Assembly: GCA_028286885.1 (NCBI GenBank)
Contig: JAQBQS010000016.1
Span: 70,464-134,463 of the forward strand
Length of the DNA stretch: 64,000 bases
Direction of reading: 5' to 3'
DNA from: Patescibacteria group bacterium
GTDB taxonomy: Bacteria; Patescibacteriota; Minisyncoccia; Phycocordibacterales; UBA1006
Both the position numbers and the translations under genes were made by a program. This document shows, in pieces, positions 10,280 through 62,530 of the stretch (position 1 is the first letter of the stretch; the number at the start of each line of letters is the position of its first letter). Under the pieces are notes generated by a model that worked only from the letters and a program-made list of their open reading frames with translations, did not search any database and was not told the DNA's origin.

Positions 10280-10299
10280 AAAATCCCATCAGGAATTTT

Positions 10300-23500: not shown

Positions 23501-24586
23501 ACGGGGTTCCGGGCCAGTAATTCAAGCGATTCATTCTTTGTTGGTACGAATGCCGGAGCTTATGATAACAATCTCACAGGTACGCAAAATGCCGCCCATT
23601 CAATCTTCATCGGTACAAATGCCGGATATACGACCGCAGACCACGCTTTGGATAACACCCAAGACCCAGATGACTATTCGATCCTGCTTGGAAACAATAC
23701 CTCGACAGGAGGATTCAAGAACTCGATTGCGCTTGGCGGGAACGCCACAAACACCGCATCAAACCAGTTCATGATCGGTTCGACGGCTCGTCCGATCAAC
23801 TCGATTGTGATGAACAGTACATCTCAGACCGGATGTACGATCGTTGCAAGCGGAATCTCGTGTTCGTCTGACCAGAGACTCAAGACAAACATTGCAGACT
23901 TGCCAACAAACGCACTTGATACGCTGACGAAGGTTCGAACGGTTACATACAATTGGATCAACCCGGCGGCAGGCCAGGATCAGAATCTTGGATTTATCGC
24001 TCAAGACTTGCAGCAGTACTATCCTCAGCTTGTTTCAGTAGGCGCAGGCGGATACCTCCAGGTAAACTACGCCGGAATTACTCCTGTCTTGGTGCAATCG
24101 ATCCGAGAACTCAACTTGAAACTTGTCGACATCCAAAAAGTCGCCGATGCGACGGATAAGACATTCTTGAACAATCTGATCGCATGGTTTGCATCATCGG
24201 CAAACGGAATAGGAGATTTGTTTGCAGGCTCGATTCATGCCAAGGATACCGTTTGCATCCAGGATGTCTGCGTGACGAAGCAAGATCTTCAGAATTTGAT
24301 AAACGCGCGAGGGCAGTCTGTCATCCAGCCCGTGCCTCCGGTGACGGTAACGACCTCATCCGGCAATGAATCTGCAACCGATTCATCGGCGCCTGTACAA
24401 GAAGACCCATCGGAAACCGTTTCCGACACGGTAAATTCAGATTCAACAAGTTCAGAACCCGTTATCGATCCGATAGTCTCATCGGACGCTTCGGGAACTG
24501 TTACAACCGACACGACTGGTACGGGTCCGTCAAGCGATACGTCAACACTGCCAGCATCATCGGATGCATCTCCGGCCATTGAATAA
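20572..24586 (+). CDS. giant secreted beta-solenoid fibre protein 1 with C-terminal tail-fibre-type intramolecular chaperone/autoprotease domain; reading frame interrupted at a poly-G tract
   Basis: Signal peptide, then VYAAAPSGGYAPGATLNPDC (frame 1). After the G11 tract the protein continues in the +1 frame for 1287 codons. It has 17-aa SxFIGxxAGxxA repeats and ends CSSDQRLKTNIADLPTNALDTLTKVRTVTYNWIN...LGFIAQDLQQYYPQLV...ITPVLVQSIRELNLKL (S74-like). Confidence 0.7.
20754..20764 (+). repeat. G11 homopolymer causing a frameshift (possible slipped-strand phase switch or assembly error)
   Basis: cac-ggggggggggg-tgg. G10 or G13 would fuse the signal-peptide ORF to the 1287-aa ORF. Confidence 0.8.
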
Positions 24587-24587
24587 T

Positions 24588-24613
24588 AAAAAAGCCAACG
24601 GGGCTTTTTTATT
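24588..24613 (+). terminator. weak terminator after fibre gene 1
   Basis: aaagcc-aacgg-ggcttttttatttg. Confidence 0.4.
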
Positions 24614-24640
24614 TGAAAAAACAAGGTTTCAAGGTATACT
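24613..24640 (+). promoter_or_regulatory. sigma70-like promoter of fibre gene 2
   Basis: TTGAAA-16 nt-TATACT. Confidence 0.5.
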
Positions 24641-24663
24641 GTGCTGAGCAATTTCCTCAACGC

Positions 24664-27600: not shown

Positions 27601-28905
27601 ATTGGTTCTACGAGTGGAATTACCAATTCTCCAGTTGCGGGTGTTACAGAAGAGACATGGCTTGGTGCTGGCGCAGGATCAAGTGGAGCAGAGATGGAAA
27701 ATACGGTGTTTATTGGAGTAAATGCAGGATCAGGTGCGGCGGGAAGAAGAGGTATCATCATAGGTAGAGATGCAGGAGTTAACAGTGTCGGCGGCAGCAA
27801 TGTATTTATTGGAAACACGGCAGGCAATAACGCCGTCGCAGGAGGGGCTACGTTTATTGGTGATGGTGCAGGATTGAATTCAACCCTCTCAAGCGGATCA
27901 ATCTTCATGGGTCGACTAGCAGGTAGCGCAACAACAAATGCTACAGGATCAATTTTCATCGGACAGCAGGCAGGAGAAGGAGATACGGTAGACAACCTTA
28001 CCGTTCCGGGAACTTCGATTTTGATCGGAAACGATACCAGAACGGGCGGTTATTCGAACTCGATTGCCCTTGGAAAAAGCGCAATCAACAGCGCGACTAA
28101 TCAGTTTATGGTCGGCTCCTCGTCAAGCCCGATCGATCAATTCGTCATGGTAGGAAGCGGCGGGGCAACCTGTTCGCTCGACGCCAATGGAACGTCATGT
28201 TCATCGGATGAACGGTTGAAGACAAACATTAGCGACCTTACAACAAACGCGCTTGATACGTTAACAAAAGTTCGAACGGTTACGTTCAATTGGATAAATG
28301 GTGCTGACTCAAATCAGCATCTCGGATTCATTGCTCAGGATATACAGCAGTTCTACCCGCAACTTGTTTCAACAGCTTCAAACGGATACCTGACAGTAAA
28401 CTATGCGGGCATTACGCCAGTATTAGTAGAATCGATCCGCGAGCTTAACTTGAAACTGATCGATATTCAAAACTTTGCGGCAGCGACTGACAAGACGTTC
28501 TTGAATACGCTGATCGCATGGCTTGGAAATGGGGCGAATGGAATTACGGATCTGTTCGCGAAGAACATTCACTCGGATTCAGTGACGACCGCGCAGCTAT
28601 GCGTAGGATCGACATGCATCAGCGAGACAGACCTTCAAAAGTTTAAGACATGGGAAGCGTCCCAGCCACAGACACCTCAGGTTTCTCCATCAGGAGGAGG
28701 ATCTTCAGATCCAGCTCCAAGCGGTGACAGTCCTGCGCCGTCTGACAATGCTGATACGTTGACACCTGATGCAAGTCAGGACGGCGCTCCGGTTGTAGAT
28801 GCTCCGGCAGACTCGTCGTCTTCGGATCCTGTTGCGCCAAGCGCTCCGCAAGACAGCGGTGCGCCAGCGCCTGCACCGAGCGACGCTCCGGCAGTCGCGC
28901 AGTAA
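24664..28905 (+). CDS. giant secreted beta-solenoid fibre protein 2 (about 1413 aa) with C-terminal tail-fibre-type intramolecular chaperone/autoprotease domain
   Basis: Paralog of fibre 1 with the same N-terminal FIVYAAAPSGGYAPGATLNPDC. More than 10 tandem 17-aa SNFIGxxAGxxA repeats. C-terminus CSSDERLKTNISDLTTNALDTLTKVRTVTFNWIN...LGFIAQDIQQFYPQLV plus a Pro/Ser/Asp-rich tail. Confidence 0.75.
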   Translation: MNFFSFKNKYALTTLAILALVSYSFIVYAAAPSGGYAPGATLNPDCAPGSSVDCVVTLPTGSGLIGSTSGVTSSPTPSGTRFETWLGQRAGLNATTDHNDHTVLIGVDAGNGTNYDFYSNFIGAEAGMNTSSDNHSNYIGYQAGKNTSNSYYANFIGYGAGDGSNDAIGSVFIGAVAGKNASGSASSTFVGNGAGINAQNSISSVFLGDAAGYGASDASLSVFIGSQAGITFSGGKKAHAIFIGATSGFNDQVDNVTTPGTSILIGEGTLTGGHSNSIGLGTNAVNTMSNQFLVASSYVNWQIAGVDYVWPTSQAAGAGYVLTNDSAGNLSWAPAGSGSGTVYDDKQIVFGDGSTAGGVTSPNFLWNNSSSRFVTAGASGAEPVIDADYHSGLPIVTIGANGYGNETNLFLSDNHGTARLGSSLLQSQLSITGDMGLAQLGDGFGMGNNTLLTVNDGSQFITLAASTGTLIQDNVGNTWLNVNPSGSTVSLGNLGAPSGTTFTIDDVGESYTFSKPNFAINGVNYIWTGSQATSYGDVLTNDGSGNLFWAQPPGGGGIASQTCSVGDFVTGFDGTNFNCGAGGWSLTGNAGTDGGTTNFIGTTDAQDFVIKTDSLEVAHFYNDTSANSYSISLGQESIATDAGMFVAGGGAGTNSSTSANSIWMGNSTGYNTDGATSSIFIGDTAGQYADSANDSVFMGTAAGNNASSSFTSNFIGYNAGNGAASSEDSNFIGTHAGDAASGSHRSNFIGAYAGQNSTGSGESNFIGYYAGYGVTGAFDSNFIGGSAGYGADQANQSNFIGPNAGYNATNANQSNFIGGQAGQDAQYASFSSFMGYQAGYGATYAADSVFLGRNAGQDAAAASNSIFVGKHAGQSASNASNSIFIGYNSGSGDSVDNTFGDSSILIGNGSLTGGFSNSIALGTNATNTAVNQFLIAPSYVNWQIAGVDYVWPNAQAGGPGYVLTNDGSGTLTWSTGGGLIGSTSGITNSPVAGVTEETWLGAGAGSSGAEMENTVFIGVNAGSGAAGRRGIIIGRDAGVNSVGGSNVFIGNTAGNNAVAGGATFIGDGAGLNSTLSSGSIFMGRLAGSATTNATGSIFIGQQAGEGDTVDNLTVPGTSILIGNDTRTGGYSNSIALGKSAINSATNQFMVGSSSSPIDQFVMVGSGGATCSLDANGTSCSSDERLKTNISDLTTNALDTLTKVRTVTFNWINGADSNQHLGFIAQDIQQFYPQLVSTASNGYLTVNYAGITPVLVESIRELNLKLIDIQNFAAATDKTFLNTLIAWLGNGANGITDLFAKNIHSDSVTTAQLCVGSTCISETDLQKFKTWEASQPQTPQVSPSGGGSSDPAPSGDSPAPSDNADTLTPDASQDGAPVVDAPADSSSSDPVAPSAPQDSGAPAPAPSDAPAVAQ

Positions 28906-32728: not shown

Positions 32729-34042
32729 ATGGCAAGCGAGAAAAAAGCGGACAAAAAAATCGGCGCGAATTTGCAAGCGGTAAAAGGCATGCGCGACATC
32801 ACGGGCGACGAGTATTACAAGTTCCAGGGATTCTTCGAGAAGGCGCAGGAAGTTTCCGAGTACTACGGATTCAAGCCGATCGAAACTCCAATGGTTGAAT
32901 ATTCTGACGTGTTCACAACCGCAATCGGCGAAGGCACCGATGTCGTCGACAAGGAAATGTATTCCTTCAAGACGAAAGGCGGCGACATGATCGCCATGCG
33001 CCCGGAGCACACCGCCGGCACGATGCGATCATACATTGAAAACGGAATGGCGAACCAGCCTCAGCCGGTCTTGCTCTACACCTATGGCCCGTCGTTTAGG
33101 CACGACACGCCGCAGAAAGGGCGCTATCGCCAGTTCTACCAGTTCGACCTCGACGCGCTCGGCTCTGAAAAGTCGATCGTCGACGCATTGGTCATCAAGA
33201 CGATGTATACGATTCTCGAAGAAGCGGGAGCAAAAGATTTGTCGGTGGACATCAATTCAATCGGCGACAAGGAATGCCGCGGACGCTACATCCGGGAGCT
33301 TACGAATTACTACAAGAAGCACTTGAAGGATTTGCCGGCAGTAGACAAGGAGCGCCTCGCCGGAAATCCTCTTCGCATTCTCGATTCAAAAGAAGCCAAG
33401 ACGATCGAGATCAACGAGGATGCGCCCGATGCCGTTTCATATTTGTGTCCCGCGTGCAAGAAGCACTTCAAAGAAGTTCTCGAATACTTGGAAGAAATGG
33501 AAATTCCATATTCGATTAACAAGAACCTCGTTCGCGGATTGTCGTACTACACGCGCACCGTGTTTGAGATTATCCAGGACATTGCCGAGGAGGGAGGCGA
33601 GTCGAAGAAACTTACGATCTGCGGAGGCGGGCGCTACGACTACTTGGGCAAGATGCTCGGATCGAAAAAAGACGTTCCTGCGATGGGCGCAGCTATCGGC
33701 GTCGATCGTGTCGTTGCGAGTTCGTGGTATGCGAACTTGAAACCCCGCATCATGAAAGATCCGGAGGCGTATTTTATCCAATTCGGACTCGAGGCGAAAT
33801 TGAAATCGCTCAACATCATGGAAATTCTCCGCAAGGCGAAGTTCCCGGTGATCCAGTCGATTTCAAAAGACAAGCTCGGTTCGCAGCTCGGCCACGCAGA
33901 AAAGCTCGGCGTGAAATATGTGATGATCTTCGGTCAGCGCGAGGCGCTCGACAATACGGTAATCGTGCGCAACATGGAAACGCGTTCGCAGGATAACGTG
34001 AAGATCGACGACTTGAAGGATTACTTGAAGAAATTGAAGTAG
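32729..34042 (+). CDS. hisS: histidyl-tRNA synthetase
   Basis: Class II motifs: MRDITGDEYY...MIAMRPEHTA...YGPSFRHDTPQKGRYRQFYQFDLDALG...GGGRYD. Confidence 0.9.
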   Translation: MASEKKADKKIGANLQAVKGMRDITGDEYYKFQGFFEKAQEVSEYYGFKPIETPMVEYSDVFTTAIGEGTDVVDKEMYSFKTKGGDMIAMRPEHTAGTMRSYIENGMANQPQPVLLYTYGPSFRHDTPQKGRYRQFYQFDLDALGSEKSIVDALVIKTMYTILEEAGAKDLSVDINSIGDKECRGRYIRELTNYYKKHLKDLPAVDKERLAGNPLRILDSKEAKTIEINEDAPDAVSYLCPACKKHFKEVLEYLEEMEIPYSINKNLVRGLSYYTRTVFEIIQDIAEEGGESKKLTICGGGRYDYLGKMLGSKKDVPAMGAAIGVDRVVASSWYANLKPRIMKDPEAYFIQFGLEAKLKSLNIMEILRKAKFPVIQSISKDKLGSQLGHAEKLGVKYVMIFGQREALDNTVIVRNMETRSQDNVKIDDLKDYLKKLK

Positions 34043-34046
34043 TGAT

Positions 34047-34072
34047 AAAAAATCCCGATCGGGATTTTTTAT
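34047..34072 (+). terminator. rho-independent terminator
   Basis: Palindrome aatcccgatcgggatt followed by TTTTTT. Confidence 0.7.
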
Positions 34073-34091
34073 TTGTGATACCATATTTGTT

Positions 34092-43330: not shown

Positions 43331-43364
43331 AGCCGCACGCCACTCGGTCGTGCGGTTTTTTTTG
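43331..43364 (+). terminator. rho-independent terminator
   Basis: ccgcacg-N9-cgtgcgg followed by TTTTTTTT. Confidence 0.7.
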
Positions 43365-43394
43365 TTTTCCAAGAATACAAGGTATACTTGCACC

Positions 43395-44156
43395 ATGAAA
43401 AAACTCATTGTGGGCAATTGGAAAATGAATCCGACGCGCGGGACTGATGCGCGCAAGCTGTTCAAATCCGTAAATGCGACCGCTTCAAAACTGAAAAATA
43501 CCGAAACGGTCGTTTGTCCGCCGCTTGTTTATTTGGAGTCGCTCGGCGAACTGGTGACGACGCGGTCGTGCGTGCTCGGCTCGCAAGACGCATTTTGGGA
43601 ACATGCGGGAGCCTACACGGGACAGGTTTCCGCCGATATGATTTTCGGCACGAAGGCGCGTTATGTCATCGTGGGACATTCGGAACGCCGTGCAATGGGC
43701 GAGACGGATGAGATGGTCAGCAAGAAAATAAAAAGCATTTTGCAATTTCCGCTGATTCCGATCGTATGCGTGGGCGAGACGAAGCGCGATGATGATCATG
43801 CGTATGTGAAGCTGGTAAAAAATCAGATCAAAAGCGCGCTTGCCGATTTAACCCAAGAGGAAATCGCGCGGATCGTGATCGCCTATGAACCCGTATGGGC
43901 TATCGGCAAGAATGCCAAGAAGGCATGCGAGCCGTCGGACTGCCGTGAAATGGCGCATGTCATTAAAACAGTATTGGCTGACATTTCAAATGCCGAAATC
44001 GCAAAGGCGATTCCGATACTTTATGGAGGATCGGCGAATGCCGAGAATGCGGAACCTTATTTGAAAGACGGGCTTGTTGACGGATTGTTGGTTGGCCGAG
44101 CAAGTCTGGATGCGAAGGAGTTTATCAAGATTTTAAAAATCGCCGAGAAAAATTGA
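43395..44156 (+). CDS. tpiA: triosephosphate isomerase
   Basis: GNWKMN, VGHSERR and AYEPVWAIG motifs. Confidence 0.9.
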   Translation: MKKLIVGNWKMNPTRGTDARKLFKSVNATASKLKNTETVVCPPLVYLESLGELVTTRSCVLGSQDAFWEHAGAYTGQVSADMIFGTKARYVIVGHSERRAMGETDEMVSKKIKSILQFPLIPIVCVGETKRDDDHAYVKLVKNQIKSALADLTQEEIARIVIAYEPVWAIGKNAKKACEPSDCREMAHVIKTVLADISNAEIAKAIPILYGGSANAENAEPYLKDGLVDGLLVGRASLDAKEFIKILKIAEKN

Positions 44157-44270
44157 TCGTCCTCCCGGGCAAGCGACGGCCTCGAGCGCGACCCGGGATC
44201 CAGGTTCTGCGGGGCCTGGATCCCGGATATGCGCCCGTAGCAAACGGCGCATTCCGGGAAGACGACTACT
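44157..44270 (+). other. GC-rich multi-hairpin intergenic element between tpiA and pgk (possible structured RNA, cis-regulatory or processing site)
   Basis: 12 bp perfect stem cccgggatccagg/cctggatcccgg; hairpin tgcgcc-N10-ggcgca; outer pairing cgtcctcccgg/ccgggaagacg. The core GACCCGGGATCCAGG also occurs at 58946-58960. Confidence 0.4.
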
Positions 44271-44277
44271 TAAACAT

Positions 44278-45405
44278 ATGAACTATCTCTCACAGCAAAA
44301 TCCGGCAGACTTTCACGGCAAGCGTGTTATCTTGCGTTTGGACTTGAACGTACCATTAAATGATGCAGGTCATGTTGATTCAACTGATGCTGATCGCATT
44401 ATGAAATCCTTGCCGACGCTCAAATGGCTCGCTGATGCAGGAGCAAAGACAATCGTCATCTCGCATATCGGACGGGATCCGAAAGAAACGCTCCGTCCTG
44501 TTGCGCGATATATGGAGTCAGTGACGACGATCGGATTTGATCCTGAATTATCCGGCGAGCGGTTGAATGAGATGATTGCGAATATGGGAAACGGGCACGC
44601 GTTGCTTCTTGAAAATCTGCGCAGCAATTCTGGAGAGGAATCAAACGACGAGGCATTTGCCAAATCGATTGCGGACCTCGGCGATATCTACGTGAATGAT
44701 GCGTTCGCCGTTTCTCATCGCGCGCATGCCTCGGTTGTCGGCATTCCGAAACTGCTTCCTCATTTTGCAGGTTTGCAAATGGAGCAGGAAATAGAGCATC
44801 TCTCGAAATCATTTTCTCCGAGTTCTCCGAGCATTCTTGTCTTGGGCGGCGCGAAATTCGAGACGAAACTTCCTGTCATTCAAAAATTCCTCGGCATTGT
44901 AGACCATATTGTAATCGGCGGAGCGCTTGCGAATAATTTTTACAAGGCGATGGGCTACGATGTCGGTTCGTCATTGATTGACGAGACGGCAAACGTCAGT
45001 GGTCTTCTTGGCAATCCCAAGATTATTATTCCTGAAACTGTCATCGTCGAAAACGAGAAAGGCAAAGAAGAGAAGAAGGTGAGCGACGTTGCGCGCGGCG
45101 ACAAGATCGTCGACATTGCGCCAAGCGGACTCGATCTACATGCAGATCTTTTCAAGAATGCAGCGTTCGTTTTGTGGAATGGCCCGATGGGCAACTACGA
45201 AAACGGATTCGTCGACGGGAGCAAGAAAATCGTCGAGCTGATCGCGGATTCGCAGGCGGAATCGATTGTCGGCGGAGGCGATTCGGTGGCGCTTGTCGAG
45301 GAACTCGACATGTCCGAGAAGTTCGGATTCCTGTCTACGGGCGGGGGTGCGATGCTCGAATACTTGGCGCAGGGAACGCTGCCGGGAATAGAGGCACTCA
45401 GGTAG
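44278..45405 (+). CDS. pgk: phosphoglycerate kinase
   Basis: RLDLNVP..., GAKTIVISHIGRD; N- and C-terminal PGK domains. Confidence 0.9.
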   Translation: MNYLSQQNPADFHGKRVILRLDLNVPLNDAGHVDSTDADRIMKSLPTLKWLADAGAKTIVISHIGRDPKETLRPVARYMESVTTIGFDPELSGERLNEMIANMGNGHALLLENLRSNSGEESNDEAFAKSIADLGDIYVNDAFAVSHRAHASVVGIPKLLPHFAGLQMEQEIEHLSKSFSPSSPSILVLGGAKFETKLPVIQKFLGIVDHIVIGGALANNFYKAMGYDVGSSLIDETANVSGLLGNPKIIIPETVIVENEKGKEEKKVSDVARGDKIVDIAPSGLDLHADLFKNAAFVLWNGPMGNYENGFVDGSKKIVELIADSQAESIVGGGDSVALVEELDMSEKFGFLSTGGGAMLEYLAQGTLPGIEALR

Positions 45406-45768
45406 TTGTCATTCCGGACTTCGAGCCGGAATCCATTTTGATTTCTATGAAGGATTATTATGTTTATATTCTAGCGAGTCAAAAGAACGGGACTCTTTAT
45501 ATCGGAGTAACAGGAAATCTTCAACGAAGAATCCATGAACACAAGCATAAAGTTCACGAAGGCTTTACTGCTAAATATAATGTCTCAAACCTTGTTTATT
45601 TTGAAAGAACCCAAGACGTGCACAGTGCACTTGCTAGGGAAACTCGGCTTAAAAACTGGAAAAGGGAATGGAAAATAGATCTTATTGAAAAAGAAAATCC
45701 TGATGGGCACGAGCTTTCAGCTGATCTTTTCTAAAATCATGGATTCCGGGTCAAGCCCGGAATGACAA
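45406..45768 (+). mobile_element. 363 bp mini-cassette: GIY-YIG nuclease ORF bounded by 29/28 bp imperfect terminal inverted repeats
   Basis: Left end ttgtcattccggacttcgagccggaatcc. The reverse complement of the right end is ttgtcattccgggcttgacccggaatcc; the outer 12 and 9 nt are identical. Confidence 0.4.
45447..45734 (+). CDS. GIY-YIG nuclease-family protein (YhbQ/COG2827-like, 95 aa)
   Basis: YVYILASQKNGTLYIGVTGNLQRRIHEH...RETRLKNWKREWKIDLI. Confidence 0.75.
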   Translation: MKDYYVYILASQKNGTLYIGVTGNLQRRIHEHKHKVHEGFTAKYNVSNLVYFERTQDVHSALARETRLKNWKREWKIDLIEKENPDGHELSADLF

Positions 45769-45771
45769 TAT

Positions 45772-45796
45772 AAAAAACACCTTCCGGTGTTTTTTA
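45772..45796. terminator. bidirectional terminator
   Basis: aaaacacc-ttcc-ggtgtttttt with A and T runs on both sides. Confidence 0.6.
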
Positions 45797-45798
45797 TA

Positions 45799-46473
45799 TT
45801 AGAGAGAAATCGCTGCTGTCTGCATCTGCGCCTTGGTCGCGGAATTCATTGAGAGGGAATTAGCGCCGTCGGCATCCATGGTTGTGTAGCCGACTCGATC
45901 AACGCGGAGCTTGTACGATCCGTTCGTTGTCGGATGAACGGCAAGCGAGATTTGGAACGTTGCCGCCGTGTAAGCCGGGATCACGAATCGGTTCGATGCG
46001 TTGAATCCTGCGCCTGAAACGGCTGTGAGGAGGCAGCTTTGCTTGCCGAATCCGTCAGTGGTTGACGCTCCGTCCTTGAGAAGCGAGAACGATACTCCGT
46101 TCTCCGTCAGGTCGCTGTGGCATGACTGCGAGATGTACAAGTCATGATCCGCCGCGTTAACTTTGAACTGAAGCGTAAAGATTCCGTGTTTCGTTGATGA
46201 TGAAGCATCTGCCGACATATTGGCTGTCTGCGAAACAAAGTGAATTTGTGGTTCAACCGATGTTGAGACAGTTCCGGCATTAGACGCTGATGCGGTTGCA
46301 GAAGTCTGGTCGGCTGAATCTGCGGCTGTCTGTGTTGATGTGTCAGACGGAAGGACCAAGGAATCATCCGTGTCAGGTCGTTTTACTGCGACAACGATAA
46401 TAATAATGATGGCGATTACTACGATCGCACCTGCCAGGTACGCGCCGTATTTCTTCATTGATTCGTTATTCAT
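45799..46473 (-). CDS. membrane-anchored Ser/Thr-rich hypothetical protein (224 aa)
   Basis: N-terminal TM AYLAGAIVVIAIIIIIVVAV. Confidence 0.45.
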   Translation of the reverse strand: MNNESMKKYGAYLAGAIVVIAIIIIIVVAVKRPDTDDSLVLPSDTSTQTAADSADQTSATASASNAGTVSTSVEPQIHFVSQTANMSADASSSTKHGIFTLQFKVNAADHDLYISQSCHSDLTENGVSFSLLKDGASTTDGFGKQSCLLTAVSGAGFNASNRFVIPAYTAATFQISLAVHPTTNGSYKLRVDRVGYTTMDADGANSLSMNSATKAQMQTAAISL

Positions 46474-47554: not shown

Positions 47555-49294
47555 ATGAAACCTGATGCGCTACTTGAAAAGCTTCTTGATTTGCGGGGAT
47601 ACAAAACGGCCGAGGATCGCGAGAATTTTTTGCATCCGAAATACGCCGACATGTTCGATCCGTTCTTGATGCATGACATGTCCAAGTCCGTTGCAAGGAT
47701 TTTTTTGGCGATGGAACATAACGAGAAGATCTGCGTCTATTCGGATTACGACGCCGACGGAATTCCCGGCGCGGTCATCCTGCATGATTTTTTCAAGAAA
47801 GCCGGTTACGAAAATTTCTGCAATTACATTCCGCATCGCCACGACGAGGGGTACGGCGTGCACAAGAATGCCCTTGAAATCTTGGCGAATGACAATGTGA
47901 AATTGGTCATTACCGTGGATGTGGGAATTACGGCGGTTGATGAGGTCGCGTTCGGAAATTCGCTCGGGCTTGAAATCATCATCACTGACCACCACGAACC
48001 GCTCGATGTTTTGCCAAACGCCTTCGCAATCGTGAATCCGAAGCTTGGGGATTATCCTGACAGAATGCTCTGCGGTTCGGGCGTGGCGTTTAAATTAGTC
48101 CAGGCGATGATTGAAGACGCTGCGAAATCCTCGCAAGCATCCTTGCCTGCAGAACTCGTTTCACTCAAACAGGCTTCGGCTGCGGATGGCTTGCGAGGAT
48201 TTTGCAGCGTCCTGGCCGCGGCTTCTGATGGCTGGGAAAAGTGGCTTCTCGATATGGCGGGACTTGCGACATTGTCCGACATGGTGCCTCTTGTGAATGA
48301 AAATCGAATCATCGCGTATTACGGAATGAAGGTTCTTGAGAAAACGAAGAGGCCGGGACTTGCGGCATTGTTTTCAAAGTCGGGAATTAACATGAACTAT
48401 CTGACGGAAACGGATATCGTGTTTTCCATTACGCCCAAATTAAACGCCGCAAGCCGCATGGCGCATCCGGTCGATGCGTTCAACGCGCTTGCTACGACCG
48501 ACTTGTCCAAGGCTACGCTTGCCGCCGAGCATCTTGCGAATTTGAACGATGAACGAAAAAAGATCGTGGCGAAAATCATGAAGGACGTTCACAAGAAAGT
48601 CTCTGCGAGAAAACTCGCGGGGGACTTGAAGCAGGTTTTGGTTGTCGGGGATCCGTCATGGCCTGCGGGAATTTTGGGCATCATCGCGTCGAAGGTCGTT
48701 GATGAGTATTCACTGACGACCTTCGTGTGGGGATCGGAAGGCGAAACGATCAAGGGATCTGTTCGAGGTGTCGGCGATATTTCAGTGGTAGCTCTCATGC
48801 AGTCGTGCGCGCATCTCTTTGTGCAGTTTGGCGGGCACGAGGACGCCGGCGGATTCGCGGCGACGCGCGAGACGATCCATTTCCTCGAAGAGGAATTCTG
48901 CAAGAAATACGACGAGTTCAAGCATGTTGTTTCAAAGCAAGTGACGACGATTGCACATGATATGGAACTGTCCGTTTCGGACGTGACGTTCCAGAATTAC
49001 CGATCGCTCCGGCAGATGGCGCCGTTTGGGATGGGCAATCCGACGCCGGTGTTCGCGTTTAAAAATATCATCATTGATTTAGTGAGGCAGTTTGGCAAAA
49101 CGACGGAGCATTTGGAGGTGATAATCCGAGATGGAAACGATTCGGTAAAAGCCATTTGCTGGTACGCGACGGCTGACTCCTTTTCGGAAAAGATCGAGCA
49201 AGGAAAAACGATGACGCTTCTTGGTGAATTTGATTTCTCGGTGTTTCGAGGAAAGACAGAGTTACGGCTCAAGATCGTTGACTTTATAAAGTAG
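47555..49294 (+). CDS. recJ: single-stranded-DNA-specific exonuclease RecJ
   Basis: DHH motifs (SDYDADGIPG, ITDHHEP), DHHA1 (GGHEDAGG), and a C-terminal OB-like domain. Confidence 0.85.
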   Translation: MKPDALLEKLLDLRGYKTAEDRENFLHPKYADMFDPFLMHDMSKSVARIFLAMEHNEKICVYSDYDADGIPGAVILHDFFKKAGYENFCNYIPHRHDEGYGVHKNALEILANDNVKLVITVDVGITAVDEVAFGNSLGLEIIITDHHEPLDVLPNAFAIVNPKLGDYPDRMLCGSGVAFKLVQAMIEDAAKSSQASLPAELVSLKQASAADGLRGFCSVLAAASDGWEKWLLDMAGLATLSDMVPLVNENRIIAYYGMKVLEKTKRPGLAALFSKSGINMNYLTETDIVFSITPKLNAASRMAHPVDAFNALATTDLSKATLAAEHLANLNDERKKIVAKIMKDVHKKVSARKLAGDLKQVLVVGDPSWPAGILGIIASKVVDEYSLTTFVWGSEGETIKGSVRGVGDISVVALMQSCAHLFVQFGGHEDAGGFAATRETIHFLEEEFCKKYDEFKHVVSKQVTTIAHDMELSVSDVTFQNYRSLRQMAPFGMGNPTPVFAFKNIIIDLVRQFGKTTEHLEVIIRDGNDSVKAICWYATADSFSEKIEQGKTMTLLGEFDFSVFRGKTELRLKIVDFIK

Positions 49295-51499: not shown

Positions 51500-52957
51500 A
51501 TGGAAGTTCTCGAAATTGCACTCGTCTCATTTCTCTTCGGTGTTGCAGGCTGGTTTCTCGGTATATGGTTTTTAATTGCGTGCGCGATTGGTTTGCTTGT
51601 CATCTTGGCATTTTTCAAACCTGCAAGAAAGCAAATTATTCTTTTCTTGCTCATAGCGACAGCATCCGCATCCGGAGGATTCTTCTGGTCGGGGCATTTT
51701 GTTTTCTCTCATGCTTCGCATATTCCTGAATCTGACTTCAACAAGAAGGAAACATTCCAAGCCGTCATATCCGACGATCCTGATCGCGGCATCGAGGGAA
51801 CGGCAATTGTTGCCGAATTAAAATCAGGAGATCATGTCCGCATCGGCCTGCCCGCCGGAACGGATGCTCTGTACGGCGACCGCATTGAATTCTCTGGAAC
51901 GCTGAAGCATCCGGAATCCTTCACAACCGACACCGGCCGCGAGTTCGATTATCCGACATACTTGCTTGTTCATGGAATTACGGCAACAACGAATATAAAA
52001 TCAATTACGATCGTCAGCCATCACAACAAGCCACTCTTCGTCGAATCGCTGTTTTCGATCAAAAAATATTTCGTGGATGCAATCAAGAAGCTCTTTCCAA
52101 GTCCGGAGTCAGGATTGTTCGCGGGAATCGTGATTGGCGAAAAGTCACTCCTTCCAAAATACAATCTGCAAGAATTTCAAATCGCGGGGCTGACTCACAT
52201 GATCGTGCTGTCGGGCTACAACATTACGATCGTCGCGCTGTTTGTTATGACGGCGCTTGCATGGCTCGGGGTCGGATACCGCGCGCGTCGCGTCGGCGCC
52301 ATCTTGGCCATTCCTGTTTTCATCGTGATGACGGGCATGGGCGCGAGCTCGGTGCGCGCGGGAATTATGGCTATTATTGTATTCGCCTTGCAGCTTGATA
52401 CGAGGCCTGCAAATTCGCTCCGCGTAATCTTGCTGACGCTCGCTACAATGGTATTTGTAAATCCTTATGCGCTCTTATATGACCCGTCGCTTCATTTGTC
52501 GTTTCTTGCGTTTATAGGTTTGGTGTATGTAACGCCGATTACGCAGCACTATTTCGAGAAATGGAATGTTCAAGAATACGGCGGCATGCGTGATTTGTTG
52601 ATAGAAACAATGTCAGTGCAATTTTTTGTGTTGCCTTATATTATCTGGATGAGCGGACGCGTTTCGGTGCTGACACTTGTTTCAAATTTGATTACTGTGC
52701 CGCTGACGCCGCTCGTCATGGGAACGGGATTTGCCGTCACGATCATCGGCATGATCGCAGGACCTCTCGGCGCCATTTTTGCAAAGCCTGTTTCGTGGGT
52801 GATGACATACATGCTGTCGGTCGCGCACATCGTCGCAAGCATGCATTTCGCAACGTTCGTCATTCCGCCGTTTGGAGGGTGGGTGATGGCCGGAATCTAT
52901 TTGACCATCTGCATAATCGTCTACATCTATTCAAGAATTCCAACCTCTCACGGTTGA
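51500..52957 (+). CDS. comEC: ComEC/Rec2-family DNA internalisation channel (core only, no metallo-beta-lactamase domain)
   Basis: N-terminal DUF4131-like segment; competence domain GLTHMIVLSGYNI...GMGASSVRAGIMAII; polytopic. Confidence 0.7.
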   Translation: MEVLEIALVSFLFGVAGWFLGIWFLIACAIGLLVILAFFKPARKQIILFLLIATASASGGFFWSGHFVFSHASHIPESDFNKKETFQAVISDDPDRGIEGTAIVAELKSGDHVRIGLPAGTDALYGDRIEFSGTLKHPESFTTDTGREFDYPTYLLVHGITATTNIKSITIVSHHNKPLFVESLFSIKKYFVDAIKKLFPSPESGLFAGIVIGEKSLLPKYNLQEFQIAGLTHMIVLSGYNITIVALFVMTALAWLGVGYRARRVGAILAIPVFIVMTGMGASSVRAGIMAIIVFALQLDTRPANSLRVILLTLATMVFVNPYALLYDPSLHLSFLAFIGLVYVTPITQHYFEKWNVQEYGGMRDLLIETMSVQFFVLPYIIWMSGRVSVLTLVSNLITVPLTPLVMGTGFAVTIIGMIAGPLGAIFAKPVSWVMTYMLSVAHIVASMHFATFVIPPFGGWVMAGIYLTICIIVYIYSRIPTSHG

Positions 52958-54789: not shown

Positions 54790-55047
54790 GTGCTCGCTTG
54801 TGCCGTCAGTGATCCATCCGAGCCCTTCCCACCAATTTTGAGAACGGGTACGGTCGCCGCTCTCCGAATTTCCGTCTTCCCAGGTACGGTTTCTCGGCGA
54901 AGCCTGGACTCTTAATTTGAAGTGATCGCCTGTTATTTCGTGCTCTTTAAAGTCTCCTATGATTTATATGTTTTTGTTAAAAGTAAAAGAGAAGTCTCGT
55001 TTCTTATGGTACTCGGCACAATTTGATTGTCAATGTATGCTATTTTG

Positions 55048-55076
55048 TTGACGAAATCGCAGTTGCCTGATATACA
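55048..55076 (+). promoter_or_regulatory. promoter of paralog 1
   Basis: TTGACG-17 nt-TATACA. Confidence 0.5.
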
Positions 55077-55116
55077 GTCTGGGAAAATACCATTCTAAAA
55101 TATAAATAGAAATAGC

Positions 55117-55614
55117 ATGTTAGACATAAAAAACGAATTCACTGAATTAATTTCAGGAAGCGAGGAAATAATCATCGACGAGTGTAGGGGTTCTGATATA
55201 CTCGAGAATACGGAAGGCCTTTTTCACATCAACGAAGAAAGCTTCCGCAAGTTCAAACTGAAGCTTGCAGACGAAATCAGTCCGAACATTCCTACGGATA
55301 AAATATCTGCCGAAGTTTATCAAAGAAAAAAAGACGCAACGCTTCTGCAAATGTTCGGCTCGTTCGGTACGGATATCAGCACTCTTTGCATGAGCTGGAA
55401 ACAGATAAAAATATTCTGCAAGAAGCATCCAATGTGGCTCTGCGGCGGGGGATTCGGAACTCTTTTTATAACCAAAATCAATGGCGAGTATGCGGTTGCA
55501 TCGCTCAACCTCGTGCCTTCCATAGGGCTGCGCATGTCCGCTTTCCCGCTAGAAGAAAAGTATGTTTTTTCCTGGGGATTCCAGCATTTGGTTGTTCCTA
55601 GGTTGTCTTCTTGA
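55117..55614 (+). CDS. paralog 1 of a novel ~160 aa family (165 aa)
   Basis: Shares EEIIIDEC.GS at the N-terminus, LC..Q.QI..FCEK.P in the middle, LFLFK, and a C-terminal PRLSS/PKLSS with the next three genes. Confidence 0.7.
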   Translation: MLDIKNEFTELISGSEEIIIDECRGSDILENTEGLFHINEESFRKFKLKLADEISPNIPTDKISAEVYQRKKDATLLQMFGSFGTDISTLCMSWKQIKIFCKKHPMWLCGGGFGTLFITKINGEYAVASLNLVPSIGLRMSAFPLEEKYVFSWGFQHLVVPRLSS

Positions 55615-55648
55615 AAAACTAAATCTCGTCCGTAAGGCGAGATTATTC

Positions 55649-55677
55649 TTGACTAAAATTCTTTTAAGATGTATATA
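55649..55677 (+). promoter_or_regulatory. promoter of paralog 2
   Basis: TTGACT-17 nt-TATATA. Confidence 0.55.
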
Positions 55678-55716
55678 GATTTGGAAATTAACATTGCAAA
55701 AATTAAATAAACCAAG

Positions 55717-56199
55717 ATGACAGCTGCTGAAAATTTATTTGAACTCATTTCTCTGGATAAGGAGATCGTCATCGATGCATGCGACGGTTCGCAAACCTTG
55801 GCAGACGCCACAACCTTATTCGTCGCAACCGATTCGGTCGTCAAAAAATGCAGGTTCAACAAGATCAGGCCAACCGGACCGACTTCCGTTGACATTTACA
55901 AAATACCTGAGAAGGGTTCGCTTGCGGGCGCTTCGATCATAGATTATTTTGAAAATGATCTGGACAAATTGTGTCTGACCCAAAACCAGATAAGGAGCTT
56001 CTGTGAGAAGAGCGCCGCGAAGTGGATAAAGGGAGATAAATTCGAGTTTTTCTTCCTGTTTAAGATAGGCGGGCGAATACACGCCGCCCATGTTGCCACG
56101 TATACTTCTGGCCTAAGGGTCTTTGCCTACAGCATGGATTTCGTAATTGCCTGGTTCGACCGTGGCAACCGGGGTTTGGTAGTTCCCAAACTACTTTAA
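55717..56199 (+). CDS. paralog 2 (160 aa)
   Basis: EIVIDACDGSQ...LCLTQNQIRSFCEK...FFFLFK...VVPKLL. Confidence 0.7.
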   Translation: MTAAENLFELISLDKEIVIDACDGSQTLADATTLFVATDSVVKKCRFNKIRPTGPTSVDIYKIPEKGSLAGASIIDYFENDLDKLCLTQNQIRSFCEKSAAKWIKGDKFEFFFLFKIGGRIHAAHVATYTSGLRVFAYSMDFVIAWFDRGNRGLVVPKLL

Positions 56200-56208
56200 A
56201 ATCTATTC

Positions 56209-56238
56209 AAAGCCCTGATCCACAATCAGGGCTTTTTC
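56209..56238 (+). terminator. terminator of paralog 2
   Basis: agccctga-tccacaa-tcagggct followed by TTTTT. Confidence 0.7.
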
Positions 56239-56239
56239 A

Positions 56240-56268
56240 TTGACAAGAATGCTTTTGCGTGATATACA
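56240..56268 (+). promoter_or_regulatory. promoter of paralog 3
   Basis: TTGACA-17 nt-TATACA (TGaTATACA extended -10). Confidence 0.55.
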
Positions 56269-56309
56269 GTTATTGAAATAACAATTGTAAAATTTAAAAT
56301 ATAACCAAG

Positions 56310-56807
56310 ATGACAGACATAATAATCCGAGAGTCCATGGTACGTCTTTCAGAAGACAAGAAACTTATCATCGACGCATGTAGCGGAGAAAGGACTTTTG
56401 CAAGTTCGCCTACTCTTTTCGGGTCACATGGAGCGGGATGGCCATTTAATGAAATGGATTATCCAAGCGCTCCTACTCCTGAAATCGAAATCGAGCGATA
56501 TCAGATGATAAAGCCAGATTGTGTAACGGATATATTCAAATCTTTTAGTTCCGATCTGGAAAAGTTATGCCTCAATCAGGATCAAATAATCACATTCTGC
56601 GAAAAGCATCCCGAAGAAATTTCCAGAGAGTCTTCAATGACGACATTTTTCCTCTTTAAAAGAAAAGAGAACGTCATGGTCGGGGTAATGTTTGGGGATG
56701 GAGCCATGGATAACCGCCATTATGTTGTTGAGGGCCAGGATCTGCCTACTGGGGTACATAGTATTAAATATTTCCGCTCAATACTTATCCCTAAACTGTC
56801 TTCTTGA
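56310..56807 (+). CDS. paralog 3 (165 aa)
   Basis: KLIIDACSGER...LCLNQDQIITFCEKHP...FFLFK...IPKLSS. Confidence 0.7.
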   Translation: MTDIIIRESMVRLSEDKKLIIDACSGERTFASSPTLFGSHGAGWPFNEMDYPSAPTPEIEIERYQMIKPDCVTDIFKSFSSDLEKLCLNQDQIITFCEKHPEEISRESSMTTFFLFKRKENVMVGVMFGDGAMDNRHYVVEGQDLPTGVHSIKYFRSILIPKLSS

Positions 56808-56817
56808 AAAACATTCA

Positions 56818-56848
56818 AAGGCCCGATCTTATAGATCGGGCCTTTTTC
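56818..56848 (+). terminator. terminator of paralog 3
   Basis: gcccgatc-ttata-gatcgggc followed by TTTTT. Confidence 0.7.
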
Positions 56849-56877
56849 TTGACTAAAATATTTTTCTATTATATACA
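56849..56877 (+). promoter_or_regulatory. promoter of paralog 4
   Basis: TTGACT-17 nt-TATACA. Confidence 0.55.
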
Positions 56878-56917
56878 GATGGAGAAATAACTATTAAAAT
56901 ATAAATATATAACCAAG

Positions 56918-57415
56918 ATGGCAGCTGCAACAAACGAATTCCTGAAACTCATTTCAGGTGAACAAGAAATTATCATCGACGCATGTGATGGCACGAGAAG
57001 CATTGCGGACTCGGAAGAAATATTTACCAGGTTCCTAGATCCAAGTTTCAAAGATGCTTTTTTTGACAAAACCGGCAAAGAAACAAAAGAAATTTCATTG
57101 GAAATCAGCGAAATAACTAAAATGTCGACCTTACAGAAGATATTCCATTCGTTGGAGATTGATCCAGAAAACTTACGTCTTACTCAGCATCAGATAATCA
57201 ATTTTTGTGAGAAGTATCCTGATAAGTTTTTAATCAATGGAAAACCTACATTATTTCTTTTCAAAATGGGCAGTTCCGTGTGTGTAGCTAGTATCGCCCG
57301 GGATTCTTGTGGATTAAGGATTTATAGAAATGACCTTTATGGCGGCAATGTCGGTCCTGGACGTTATAATGTGATGCCTTCTTGGCGAATCGCAATTCCC
57401 AAACTGTCTTCTTGA
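56918..57415 (+). CDS. paralog 4 (165 aa)
   Basis: EIIIDACDGTR...LRLTQHQIINFCEKYP...LFLFK...IPKLSS. Confidence 0.7.
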   Translation: MAAATNEFLKLISGEQEIIIDACDGTRSIADSEEIFTRFLDPSFKDAFFDKTGKETKEISLEISEITKMSTLQKIFHSLEIDPENLRLTQHQIINFCEKYPDKFLINGKPTLFLFKMGSSVCVASIARDSCGLRIYRNDLYGGNVGPGRYNVMPSWRIAIPKLSS

Positions 57416-57423
57416 AACACATT

Positions 57424-57455
57424 CAAAGCCCTGATCACAGATCAGGGCTTTTTCT
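57424..57455 (+). terminator. terminator of paralog 4 (10 bp stem)
   Basis: agccctgatc-aca-gatcagggct followed by TTTTT; nearly identical to the paralog 2 terminator. Confidence 0.7.
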
Positions 57456-57576: not shown

Positions 57577-57694
57577 ATGCGGGTTATTATTAAGTTAATC
57601 CGGGACACAGGTTATCGCCGGAACGATGCAACACTTGGCTGTTTTTTCAGCACGAGACGTCGTTTCGAGTAGTCTGTTCCCATCAATCAAACGT

Positions 57695-58897
57695 ATGGCA
57701 GCAGCTGAATTTGACCGATCAAAGCCACACGTAAACGTAGGAACCATTGGTCACGTCGACCATGGCAAGACTACGCTTACGGCGGCTATTTTGAGCGTCC
57801 TTAACCGAGAAGGCAACGGATATGGAGCCGTTACCAAGGGAATCAACGACATCGACAAGGCTCCCGAGGAAAAGGCACGAGGAATTACGATTTCATTGTC
57901 TCACTCTGAGTACTGGACACCGACGCGACACTACGCTCACATCGACGCCCCAGGACATGCCGACTACATCAAGAACATGATTACAGGTGCCGCTCAGATG
58001 GACGGTGCCGTACTCGTAGTAGCAGCAACAGACGGAGCGATGCCACAGACACGAGAGCACATTTTGCTCGCGCGACAGGTAAACGTTCCAAAGATGATTG
58101 TCTTCTTGAACAAGTGCGACATGGTTGATGACCCAGAAATGCTCGATCTCGTTGAGATGGAAATGCGAGAAATCTTGACCAAGAATGGTTACGACGGAGA
58201 CGCAACACCAATCATCCGAGGTTCAGGACTTAAGGCTTTGGAATCAGCTGACAACAGCGATCCTTACGCTCAGAAAGTCATGGAACTCGTTCGAGCATTG
58301 GACGAGTACATCCCAGTTCCAGAGCGAGAGCTCGACAAGCCATTCTTGATGCCAGTAGAGGACGTATTCTCGATCGAAGGACGAGGAACCGTCGTAACTG
58401 GAAAAATCGAGCAGGGAATCATCAAGGTAGGAGAGGAAATCGAAATTGTCGGTATCCACGACACCGTGAAGACAACGGTTACAGGAGTTGAAATGTTCAA
58501 CAAGTCGCTCCAGCAGGGACAGGCCGGTGACAACGCCGGAATTCTCCTCCGAGGAATCAAGAAGGAAGACGTTACCCGAGGGCAGGTTCTCTGCAAACCG
58601 GGATCAGTCAAGCCTCACACAGAGTTCGAGTGCGAGACCTACATCCTCAAGAAGGAGGAAGGAGGACGACACACGCCGTTCATCCAGGGTTACAAGCCTC
58701 AGTTCTACGTTCGAACAACGGACGTAACGGGAGAAGTAACGCTTCCAGAAGGAACAGCTATGGTTATGCCAGGCGACACGGTAACATTCAAGGTTAAACT
58801 CATGGCTCCAGTAGCTCTCGAGAACAACCAGCGATTCACCGTCCGAGAGGGAGGAAAGACAGTCGGTGCAGGTGTTGTTACCAAGATCATTGCTTAG
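57695..58897 (+). CDS. tuf: elongation factor Tu
   Basis: [32 protein letters not shown]...[22 protein letters not shown]...NKCD...; 400 aa. Confidence 0.93.
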
Positions 58898-58905
58898 TGA
58901 ATTGT

Positions 58906-58960
58906 CCGTCTTCCCGGGCTTGATTGTCTCAATCACCTACGCGGTGACCCGGGATCCAGG
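58906..58960 (+). other. second copy of the CGTCyTCCCGGGC...GACCCGGGATCCAGG element (tuf-rpsJ intergenic)
   Basis: ccgtcttcccgggc + hairpin tgattg-tctc-caatca + cctacgcggtGACCCGGGATCCAGG. Confidence 0.4.
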
Positions 58961-58981
58961 ACCAAACACTCTCCATTAATT

Positions 58982-59311
58982 ATGGCAACAAAAACACAGG
59001 CTCCAGCTGGCGGAATCCGTTTGCGCGTCCGCGCATACGAGAGCAAAATTCTCGATGCGTCGATCAAGCAGATCATCGACATCGCCAAGAAGAACGAGGC
59101 TGAAGTCCGCGGTCCGGTCCCGTTGCCAAACGAGATCAAGAAGTACACGGTGAACCGTTCGACGTTCGTCCACAAGGACGCGCGCGAGCAGTTCGAAATC
59201 CGCGTGCACAAGCGGCTCATCGACATCGTCAACCCGAATCCGAAATTGATCGAAGCATTGGGAACAATGAACCTTCCGTCAGGAGTCGAGGTCGACATGA
59301 AGATGATGTAA
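58982..59311 (+). CDS. rpsJ: 30S ribosomal protein S10
   Basis: IRLRVRAYESKILDASIKQIIDIAKKNEAEVRGPVPLP...STFVHKDAREQFEIRVHKRLIDI. Confidence 0.92.
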   Translation: MATKTQAPAGGIRLRVRAYESKILDASIKQIIDIAKKNEAEVRGPVPLPNEIKKYTVNRSTFVHKDAREQFEIRVHKRLIDIVNPNPKLIEALGTMNLPSGVEVDMKMM

Positions 59312-62466: not shown

Positions 62467-62493
62467 GACCCCGCAAGGGGTTTTCTTGATAAA

Positions 62494-62522
62494 ATAAAAA
62501 ATCTCACAATGAGATTTTTTGT
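62494..62522. terminator. bidirectional AT-flanked hairpin
   Basis: aaaaaatctca-caa-tgagatttttt. Confidence 0.5.
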
Positions 62523-62530
62523 TGAGCTTC

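Follow-up and report, generated by a model that had tools for sequence, protein, structure and literature searches.

Two groups of short hairpin repeats have been described that come close to the elements reported here, which lie within 64 kb of a metagenome-assembled genome (MAG) of the Patescibacteria group (this whole stretch is hereafter the window), in the spacers between tpiA and pgk and between tuf and rpsJ and on both sides of a small GIY-YIG nuclease gene that follows pgk. The CGTC-tagged repetitive extragenic palindromes (REPs; Di Nocera, De Gregorio, and Rocco 2013, BMC Genomics 14:522; PMC3733652) are characterized by an unpaired tag CGTC (with variants TGTC and CCTC), a stem of 8–9 bp whose first pairs are A-T and T-A, a loop of 4–5 nt, and a tail CCA, with the loop size and the first A-T pair described as almost invariable. 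The same paper reports them from five phyla, assigns them to families CGTC-1 to CGTC-4, lists Neisseria dRS3 and Rickettsia RPE-4 and RPE-6 among the members, and describes these REPs as high in copy number, mostly arranged as inverted dimers, and having "no dedicated transposase".

The other group is linked to a nuclease. In the Ssn system (Chenal et al. 2025, Nat Commun 16:2388; PMC11893778), the gene ssnA is flanked by NTS, an extended dRS3 of sequence CGTCATTCCCGCGMAVGCGGGAATCYRG, and by the generalized motif SRM; the authors note that NTS-ssnA-NTS resembles an insertion sequence. SsnA of N. meningitidis is a 94-aa single-domain GIY-YIG protein (cd10448) with catalytic residues Y6, Y17, and E64; it binds the hairpin only in single-stranded DNA (ssDNA), neither double-stranded DNA nor RNA being bound, and cleavage is confined to the head-bearing strand, a few nt upstream of the head (PMC11893778). 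The identity of the NTS loop is dispensable and loop extensions are tolerated, and in N. meningitidis the system restricts transformation by NTS-bearing DNA (PMC11893778). Membership of the Ssn family was defined by a BLASTP match to CAX49033.1 (E ≤ 1e-10, at least 75% cover) with cd10448 as the top CDD hit, and 71% of Ssn genes were flanked by SRM on at least one side and 42% on both (PMC11893778).

We identified five hairpin units in the window and consider it about 80% probable that they represent a dispersed hairpin DNA repeat of the CGTC-tagged REP/SRM class, associated with an Ssn-type nuclease gene that is bracketed by two canonical units. On this reading, the elements ahead of pgk and rpsJ are copies of a known dispersed repeat rather than a new gene-control element, and their position ahead of highly expressed genes is incidental.

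Five hairpin units and an Ssn-like gene

The pattern GTCNTYCCSG-N(3-60)-CSGGRATCCA, searched on both strands of the window, matched five hairpin units and nothing else. These units and the genes around them are as follows.

43350-44156, tpiA (TIM, by Pfam)
44158..44204, plus strand, unit 1a, long-middle ("B-type"), left half of the tpiA-pgk pair: CGTC, CT, CCCGGG, a 22-nt middle, CCCGGG, AT, CCAGG (CGTCCTCCCGGG-...-CCCGGGATCCAGG)
44205..44214, TTCTGCGGGG, 10 nt that separate the tail of unit 1a from that of unit 1b
44215..44264, minus strand, unit 1b, B-type, right half of the tpiA-pgk pair, head outward and facing pgk: minus strand CGTCTTCCCGG-AATGCGCCGTTTGCTACGGGCGCATAT-CCGGGATCCAGG
44278-45405, pgk (PGK, by Pfam)
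45407..45436, plus strand, unit 3, canonical short ("A-type"), between the pgk stop and the GIY-YIG gene, head away from that gene: TGTCATTCCGGACTTCGAGCCGGAATCCAT
45447..45734, plus strand, GIY-YIG gene encoding the Ssn-like protein P0001 (95 aa; Pfam PF01541, E = 1e-15, residues 4-77)
45738..45767, minus strand, unit 4, canonical A-type, head away from the GIY-YIG gene: minus strand TGTCATTCCGGGCTTGACCCGGAATCCATG
57626-58897, tuf (EF-Tu, by Pfam)
58907..58960, plus strand, unit 2, B-type singleton in the tuf-rpsJ spacer: CGTCTTCCCGGG, a 29-nt middle with two small hairpins, CCCGGGATCCAGG
58982-59311, rpsJ (S10, by Pfam)

In each unit, a free (C/T)GTC head is followed by a stem whose base is either TCCCGG/CCGGGA or TTCCGG/CCGGAA and whose middle varies (5–31 nt), and then by a CCA tail, present on all five units (as CCAGG or CCAT); the head is CGTC in units 1a, 1b, and 2 and TGTC in units 3 and 4. 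Folded as ssDNA, every unit forms its own hairpin with head and tail unpaired. The stem of unit 4 has 8 bp (ATTCCGGG/CCCGGAAT) and closes on a 5-nt loop, and that of unit 3 is split by an internal mismatch into 7 bp and 2 bp. In units 1a, 1b, and 2, the first stem position is C or T opposite T and is unpaired, the stem base has 6–7 bp, and the middles have 22–29 nt; unit 1a folds with a TCCCGGG/CCCGGGA stem, and the folds of units 1b and 2 reach -17.0 kcal/mol (z = -3.9) and -14.6 kcal/mol (z = -4.0), respectively. Inverted dimers make up two of the three unit occurrences, the tuf-rpsJ copy being a singleton.

The GIY-YIG gene lies directly after pgk, 1.2 kb from the tpiA-pgk pair of units; unit 3 ends 10 nt before its start and unit 4 begins 3 nt after its stop, both with heads outward. 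By Pfam scan, P0001 consists of the GIY-YIG domain alone. It has 4138 homologues, mostly of 94–110 aa, and residues Y7, Y18, and E65 were invariant in an alignment of 40 homologues, at positions that fit the numbering of Y6, Y17, and E64 in N. meningitidis SsnA. Comparison of P0001 with NCBIfam, PADLOC, and PHROGs gave only weak generic GIY-YIG matches, and comparison with the PDB gave no match.

The elements in the two spacers had been noticed in a sequence-only reading of this DNA, and the shared sequences that it described are present. An exact 15-mer, GACCCGGGATCCAGG, occurs in both spacers (44190-44204 and 58946-58960, both on the plus strand), each time with CGTCYTCCCGGGC upstream (about 1e-4 recurrences of a given 15-mer would be expected by chance in 128 kb of two-strand sequence), and both copies are preceded, at a gap of 18–24 nt, by an upstream arm, CGTC(C/T)TCCCGGGC (44158-44170 and 58907-58919). 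The pgk copy contains a 12-bp perfect stem, CCGGGATCCAGG/CCTGGATCCCGG, and an outer helix, CGTCC.TCCCGGG/CCGGGAAGACG; an RNA folding check gave -69.4 kcal/mol (z = -6.1) for 44150-44285 and -31.4 kcal/mol (z = -2.9) for the rpsJ copy; and no T-run follows either copy, as judged by reading the sequence, in a window with a GC content of 42–54%. The interpretation of the pgk copy as one 114-nt structure has to be revised, as it is made up of units 1a and 1b in inverted orientation, heads outward and 10 nt apart, an arrangement that explains both the 12-bp stem (tail against tail) and the supposed outer closing helix (head against head). The last unit stops 13 nt short of the pgk ATG rather than 8 nt, and the two copies initially counted become five with the inclusion of unit 1b and of the two units that flank the GIY-YIG gene. 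Among the roles that had been proposed, a small REP-like repeat family and, loosely, a protein-binding site are supported: the units share the head-stem-tail layout of the CGTC-tagged REPs and SRM (PMC3733652, PMC11893778), and a matching nuclease-type gene is found 1.2 kb away between two further units.

Hairpins around homologues of the nuclease gene

The arrangement of gene and hairpins recurs. We searched 80 metagenome loci carrying P0001 homologues (54–66% identical) with a structural detector (GTC plus 8-nt complementary arms), looking for a forward unit within 150 nt upstream and a reverse unit within 180 nt downstream of the gene. The upstream forward unit was present in 65/76 loci, the downstream reverse unit in 63/73, and both in 52/69; the opposite orientations occurred in 13/76 loci upstream and 20/73 downstream, and the background was 0.5–1 unit per kb. 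The tail CCA was found in 121 of approximately 158 units from these loci.

Pairing in these hairpins is kept by compensatory changes. For 122 sequences that were picked by the head GTCAT nearest the gene alone, with pairing ignored, 89.7% of the cells were paired, as compared to 73.5% in shuffles and 20–51% in slid controls; there were 137 double-sided changes (31 in shuffles), and compensatory changes were seen at six of the eight pairs. A strand test found 16 G-T wobbles and 7 A-C mismatches (p = 0.09), counts that are biased by the row filter. Units 3 and 4 belong to the same family of hairpins; they were the best matches in the window (28.6 bits, E = 3.6e-5 and 28.7 bits, E = 3.3e-5, respectively; next match, E = 0.55) of a covariance model, R1, that was built from 55 gene-flanking hairpins, none of them from the window, and has the consensus TGTCATTCCnGCGAAAGCnGGAATCCAn. 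The sequence-only reading had named just two copies without conserved structure as the outcome that would refute it; many copies and strong covariation were found for the family as a whole, and it is in the orthologous tpiA-pgk and tuf-rpsJ spacers of relatives that no conservation was seen.

Some homologues carry C-terminal tails, such as GMDPGSSPG, GMDSGSSPE, or GLDPGSGPG, or N-terminal extensions that represent the translated flanking repeat (e.g., in the 40-homologue alignment and at loci L115, L117, and the L079 type), indicating that the gene calls of some homologues run into the repeats. The plus strand of unit 4 in the window translates to the same peptide as homologue tails such as GMDSGSSPE.

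Likeness to described systems and assignment of the long-middle units

The window resembles the SRM-ssnA arrangement in that a single-domain GIY-YIG gene of about 95 aa is bracketed by inverted hairpins with heads outward and further copies lie near other genes, and in the order of the hairpin parts: (C/T)GTC head, AT, G+C stem, and a tail whose first base is C; the R1 consensus is nearly identical to NTS, and the long-middle units accord with the loop extensions that are tolerated in the published system. The host is a point of difference, as Patescibacteria go unmentioned in the main text of the paper (PMC11893778). Our findings extend the Ssn/SRM system to a Patescibacteria-group genome in which comEC and recJ also lie a few kb from the nuclease gene.

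With the CGTC-tagged REPs (PMC3733652), the window units share the CGTC/TGTC tag, the CCA tail, the arrangement as inverted dimers that can fold into one large hairpin, and a mostly intergenic location between co-directional or convergent genes; units 3 and 4 also have stems of 7–8 bp beginning with AT, and unit 4 has a 5-nt loop. Units 1a, 1b, and 2 depart from that description, with middles of 22–29 nt and a mismatched first position in contrast to loops of 4–5 nt and an A-T first pair, and the window dimer differs in having its heads at the outer ends.

More distant likenesses exist to the GTAG REPs and REPINs of the RAYT system and to IS200/IS605 "peel and paste" elements, which likewise involve hairpins recognized as ssDNA, inverted doublets, a partner gene between repeats, and dispersed non-autonomous copies. 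The head, though, is GTAG in those REPs and CGTC or TGTC in the window, and the gene between the repeats encodes a RAYT there and a GIY-YIG protein here. RAYT, an HUH tyrosine transposase, works through covalent intermediates and rejoins the DNA, whereas a GIY-YIG nuclease only hydrolyses it; the window also differs in presenting two cleavable heads on opposite strands.

The long-middle units were traced further with a gapped exact pattern, CGTCYTCCCGG-N(10-40)-CCGGGATCCAGG, which identified 86 loci in a collection of species-representative genomes. These loci occur in many phyla and in all kinds of contexts (hosts include Shewanella, Hyphomicrobiaceae, Caulobacteraceae, Synergistaceae, Legionellales, Chloroflexota, Planctomycetota, and Nocardia), and their middles vary between lineages, mostly with hairpins of their own. 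Units 1a, 1b, and 2 share head, AT, and tail with the gene-flanking units, and the 1a/1b pair likewise has its heads outward; their stem TCCCGG/CCGGGA recurs in units flanking homologues at two loci (L108 and L144), and one homologue (L013) has a long unit upstream and a canonical-like unit downstream. Units 1a, 1b, and 2 are a variant subtype that probably belongs to the nuclease system.

Several observations weigh against assigning these units, or the system as a whole, to the Ssn/SRM class. P0001 was likened to SsnA by its domain, size, residue positions, and flanks, rather than by alignment with CAX49033.1 or cd10448. The published SRM pattern, HGTCWYN(0-2)YYVSBRHN(0-5)WNVSBRGN(0-2)RNCYNB, had no match in the window (shuffles had a mean of 0.22). 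All five units fall within 15 kb of the approximately 72 kb of this genome that was scanned, where the species highlighted for SRM carry hundreds of copies per genome (PMC11893778); no further units were found in approximately 7.7 kb of this genome beyond the window. As for units 1a, 1b, and 2, R1 did not detect them at E ≤ 10; the base after GTC, which is A in 127/128 of the hairpins flanking homologues, is C or T in these three, so that the first stem pair is lost; a P0001 homologue lies within 8 kb of only 1/86 long-unit loci; and their assignment to the nuclease rests on shared architecture, the L013 locus, and proximity. It should be considered here that the test from gene to hairpin, which starts from homologues, is informative and the test from hairpin to gene is not. 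The miss of the SRM pattern lowers a strict claim that the units are SRM only slightly, since the pattern was made by hand from 29 genomes (PMC11893778). Units 3 and 4 fail it by one degenerate position next to the loop, and the long units exceed its loop of 0–5 nt; with a loop limit of 35 nt, units 1b and 2 match, and unit 1a, which has C after GTC, also requires the W at that position to be relaxed to N. As the pattern misses both real (short) and probable (long-middle) units, surveys that use it are bound to undercount.

Within the three long-middle units of the window, the arms are identical over 11–13 nt and the middles are dissimilar, each folding on itself; simple copy-and-paste of one master would not predict such unrelated middles. 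The middles are conserved within one genome in a Hyphomicrobiaceae MAG and in Shewanella. In Shewanella sp. MF05960 (L001 410-739 and others), 36-nt units with the same ends are arranged in tandem with a 147-nt period. The flank that comes after each of them, TGTT(A/T)G(T/C)TTTT..., is conserved, so that the units may be part of a larger composite repeat. Peptides encoded by spurious open reading frames (ORFs) through such repeats (WIPAFAGMT and others) returned no papers.

By analogy with SsnA of Neisseria and Wolbachia, P0001 would bind the hairpins only when the DNA is single-stranded, as during uptake, replication, or repair, and would then cut the strand carrying the CGTC head a few nt 5′ of the head. 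With heads outward, cuts would be predicted at the outer borders of the pair or of the cassette, on opposite strands. The nuclease would thereby act on DNA dynamics and not on the expression of pgk or rpsJ, any effect of the transcribed hairpins on mRNA being a by-product.

Insertion sites, rival explanations, and other features

In four lineages with Pgk 79–85% identical to that of the window (L087–L091), the tpiA-pgk spacer has 0–4 nt, and the nuclease cassette is missing. L087 reads gagaaaaattaa-ACAT-atgaac where the window reads gagaaaaattga-TCGTCC...GAAGACGACTACTTAA-ACAT-atgaac; the window has 117 extra nt, with the unit pair, exactly at the tpiA stop codon. At the other end of pgk, the stop codon in L087 and L088 abuts a shared bidirectional terminator, which is followed by a convergent gene for 220–224 aa; in the window, approximately 365 nt comprising unit, gene, and unit are inserted at this pgk-terminator junction. 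The tpiA-pgk pair and the nuclease cassette are thus lineage-specific insertions that the closest available relatives lack, and these two clean filled and empty sites, one with a gene-less pair and one with a nuclease cassette, bear on how CGTC-type REPs spread. Each of the two insertions regenerates the stop codon of the upstream gene; their borders lie outside the heads by 1–3 nt on the left and 4–9 nt on the right, with some ambiguity as to the precise junctions and to any target duplication. The tuf-rpsJ unit is also absent from relatives with S10 85–94% identical (L092–L099), whose spacers of 51–63 nt are AT-rich and contain no unit; divergence of these spacers prevents a clean insertion from being demonstrated at this site.

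The tuf-rpsJ spacer of each of these relatives contains a different small hairpin (e.g., GGGGAACCCCGGTTCC and CTCTCCTACGAGAGGG), and there may be a requirement at this place for structure alone, as a tuf terminator or attenuator or an S10 leader, that is now met by unit 2. In L089–L091 (Pgk 79%), another small ORF of 121–132 aa, with no Pfam match and a promoter-like AT-rich leader, occupies the place of the cassette, and the pgk 3′ end seems to have received insertions repeatedly. The terminator hairpin next to the cassette, at 45771-45797, is positionally conserved in relatives, the cassette sitting just upstream of it; bidirectional terminator-like hairpins of this kind (A-run, G+C stem, and T-run; family D9) were found at 10273-10312, 24582-24621, 34042-34081, 45767-45806, and 62491-62530.

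The sequence-only reading had framed the elements as RNA-processing or stability elements, and a cis-acting RNA in the pgk and rpsJ leaders (processing site, stability hairpin, or translational regulator) would fit the location of the units within operons, where they would be transcribed, as well as their very stable RNA folds. Effects of REP hairpins on mRNA decay are known from other bacteria (discussed in PMC3733652), and an effect on expression is likely at tpiA-pgk, two genes that are coupled in relatives and separated by the insertion in the window. We nevertheless regard this explanation as very unlikely to account for the elements. None of the sampled relatives has the unit in its orthologous spacers, and one member each of the pgk pair and of the gene-flanking pair runs antisense to the mRNA. 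Across many phyla the motif ends recur in contexts that are unrelated, the middles of the three units bear no sequence relation to one another, and the partner protein characterized for this class of repeats shows no RNA binding (PMC11893778). Rfam gives no support either: scanned at the gathering score, the window had no match, and at E ≤ 1 there were only far sub-threshold chance matches in 44100-45850 and none in 58850-59050. Given the spacers of 0–4 nt in relatives, the pair breaks a conserved translational coupling of tpiA and pgk, and side effects on the mRNA are plausible as a secondary consequence; the notion that the units are leader riboregulators of pgk and rpsJ is a false lead that can be set aside.

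A miniature transposon of the MITE or REPIN type, moved by a tyrosine transposase of the RAYT or IS200/IS605 kind, or a target for IS110/IS1111 elements, would make the GIY-YIG gene an unrelated neighbour. The inverted-pair layout does resemble REPINs, comparison with related genomes shows both the pair and the cassette to be insertions, and Neisseria dRS3, which belongs to this class of repeats, is known to serve as a target for integration (cited in PMC11893778). This explanation appears highly improbable in view of the CGTC/TGTC heads, which are not the GTAG of RAYT-linked REPs, and of the lack of any transposase ORF adjoining the units in the ORF list for 40–64 kb and in Pfam scans of neighbouring ORFs; moreover, the association between GIY-YIG genes and outward hairpins is strong and orientation-specific over 80 loci, so the gene is not a chance neighbour. 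The core also holds CCCGGG (SmaI) and GGATCC (BamHI) side by side, as a cloning-vector polylinker might. Contamination of this kind, or chance similarity, is hardly credible: a second 13-nt arm, 18–24 nt upstream, also matches, the units fold into hairpins whose head and tail are specific, and 86 loci from independent assemblies show this architecture. Vector contamination was rejected because of this recurrence and because synteny of the contig with relatives holds to either side of every insertion.

The outward-headed pair could itself be the mobile unit of a hairpin-directed element driven by the GIY-YIG protein, in which unit-ssn-unit is autonomous and the gene-less pgk pair non-autonomous, inserting at gene ends in ssDNA. 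We consider this doubtful. The borders of both insertions lie within 1–9 nt of the heads, roughly where Ssn enzymes cut. The combination of identical arms and unrelated middles hints at copying of, or selection on, the protein-recognized stem base alone. Rapid movement is not indicated, as an identical homologue (P0079), sampled on 22 contigs, had the same neighbourhood in all 10 places listed. Were GIY-YIG-driven mobility true, the CGTC REPs would gain the "missing transposase" noted in 2013, and the transposition chemistry would be new.

Downstream of the Ssn-like gene, at distances of 1.8 kb and 5.8 kb, lie genes for RecJ, an ssDNA exonuclease (47555-49294, plus strand), and ComEC, a DNA-uptake channel (51500-52957, plus strand). 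Their closeness fits a role of the nuclease on incoming or exposed ssDNA, which is suggestive and proves nothing. Inside comEC, at 52858-52900 on the plus strand, CGTCATTCCGCC-GTTTGGAGGGTGGGTGAT-GGCCGGAATCTA presents a head of the repeat class, AT, a stem, and a CTA tail. This motif is in frame within the Competence domain, where the Pfam match is uninterrupted (protein residues 211-476 against profile positions 2-266), and R1 did not report it; it is either a chance occurrence (by a rough estimate, about 0.02 expected) or an intragenic unit.

Two further features of the window contain repeats of other kinds. At 55042-57451, four paralogous ORFs of 160–165 aa are arranged in tandem (55117-55614, 55717-56199, 56310-56807, and 56918-57415), two of which were scanned with Pfam and had no match. 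A promoter-like repeat of 53 nt (TTGAC...TATACAG; family D10) is conserved ahead of each ORF, and a 27-nt hairpin, AAAGCCCTGATC...GATCAGGGCTTT (I9), follows the second and the fourth ORFs (56209-56235 and 57425-57451). The region from approximately 21600 to 28600 contains very large ORFs made up of 51-nt (17-aa) periodic repeats (..NS.F.G..AG..; D1–D8), with duplicated blocks of 100–250 nt; these ORFs look like genes for giant surface proteins.

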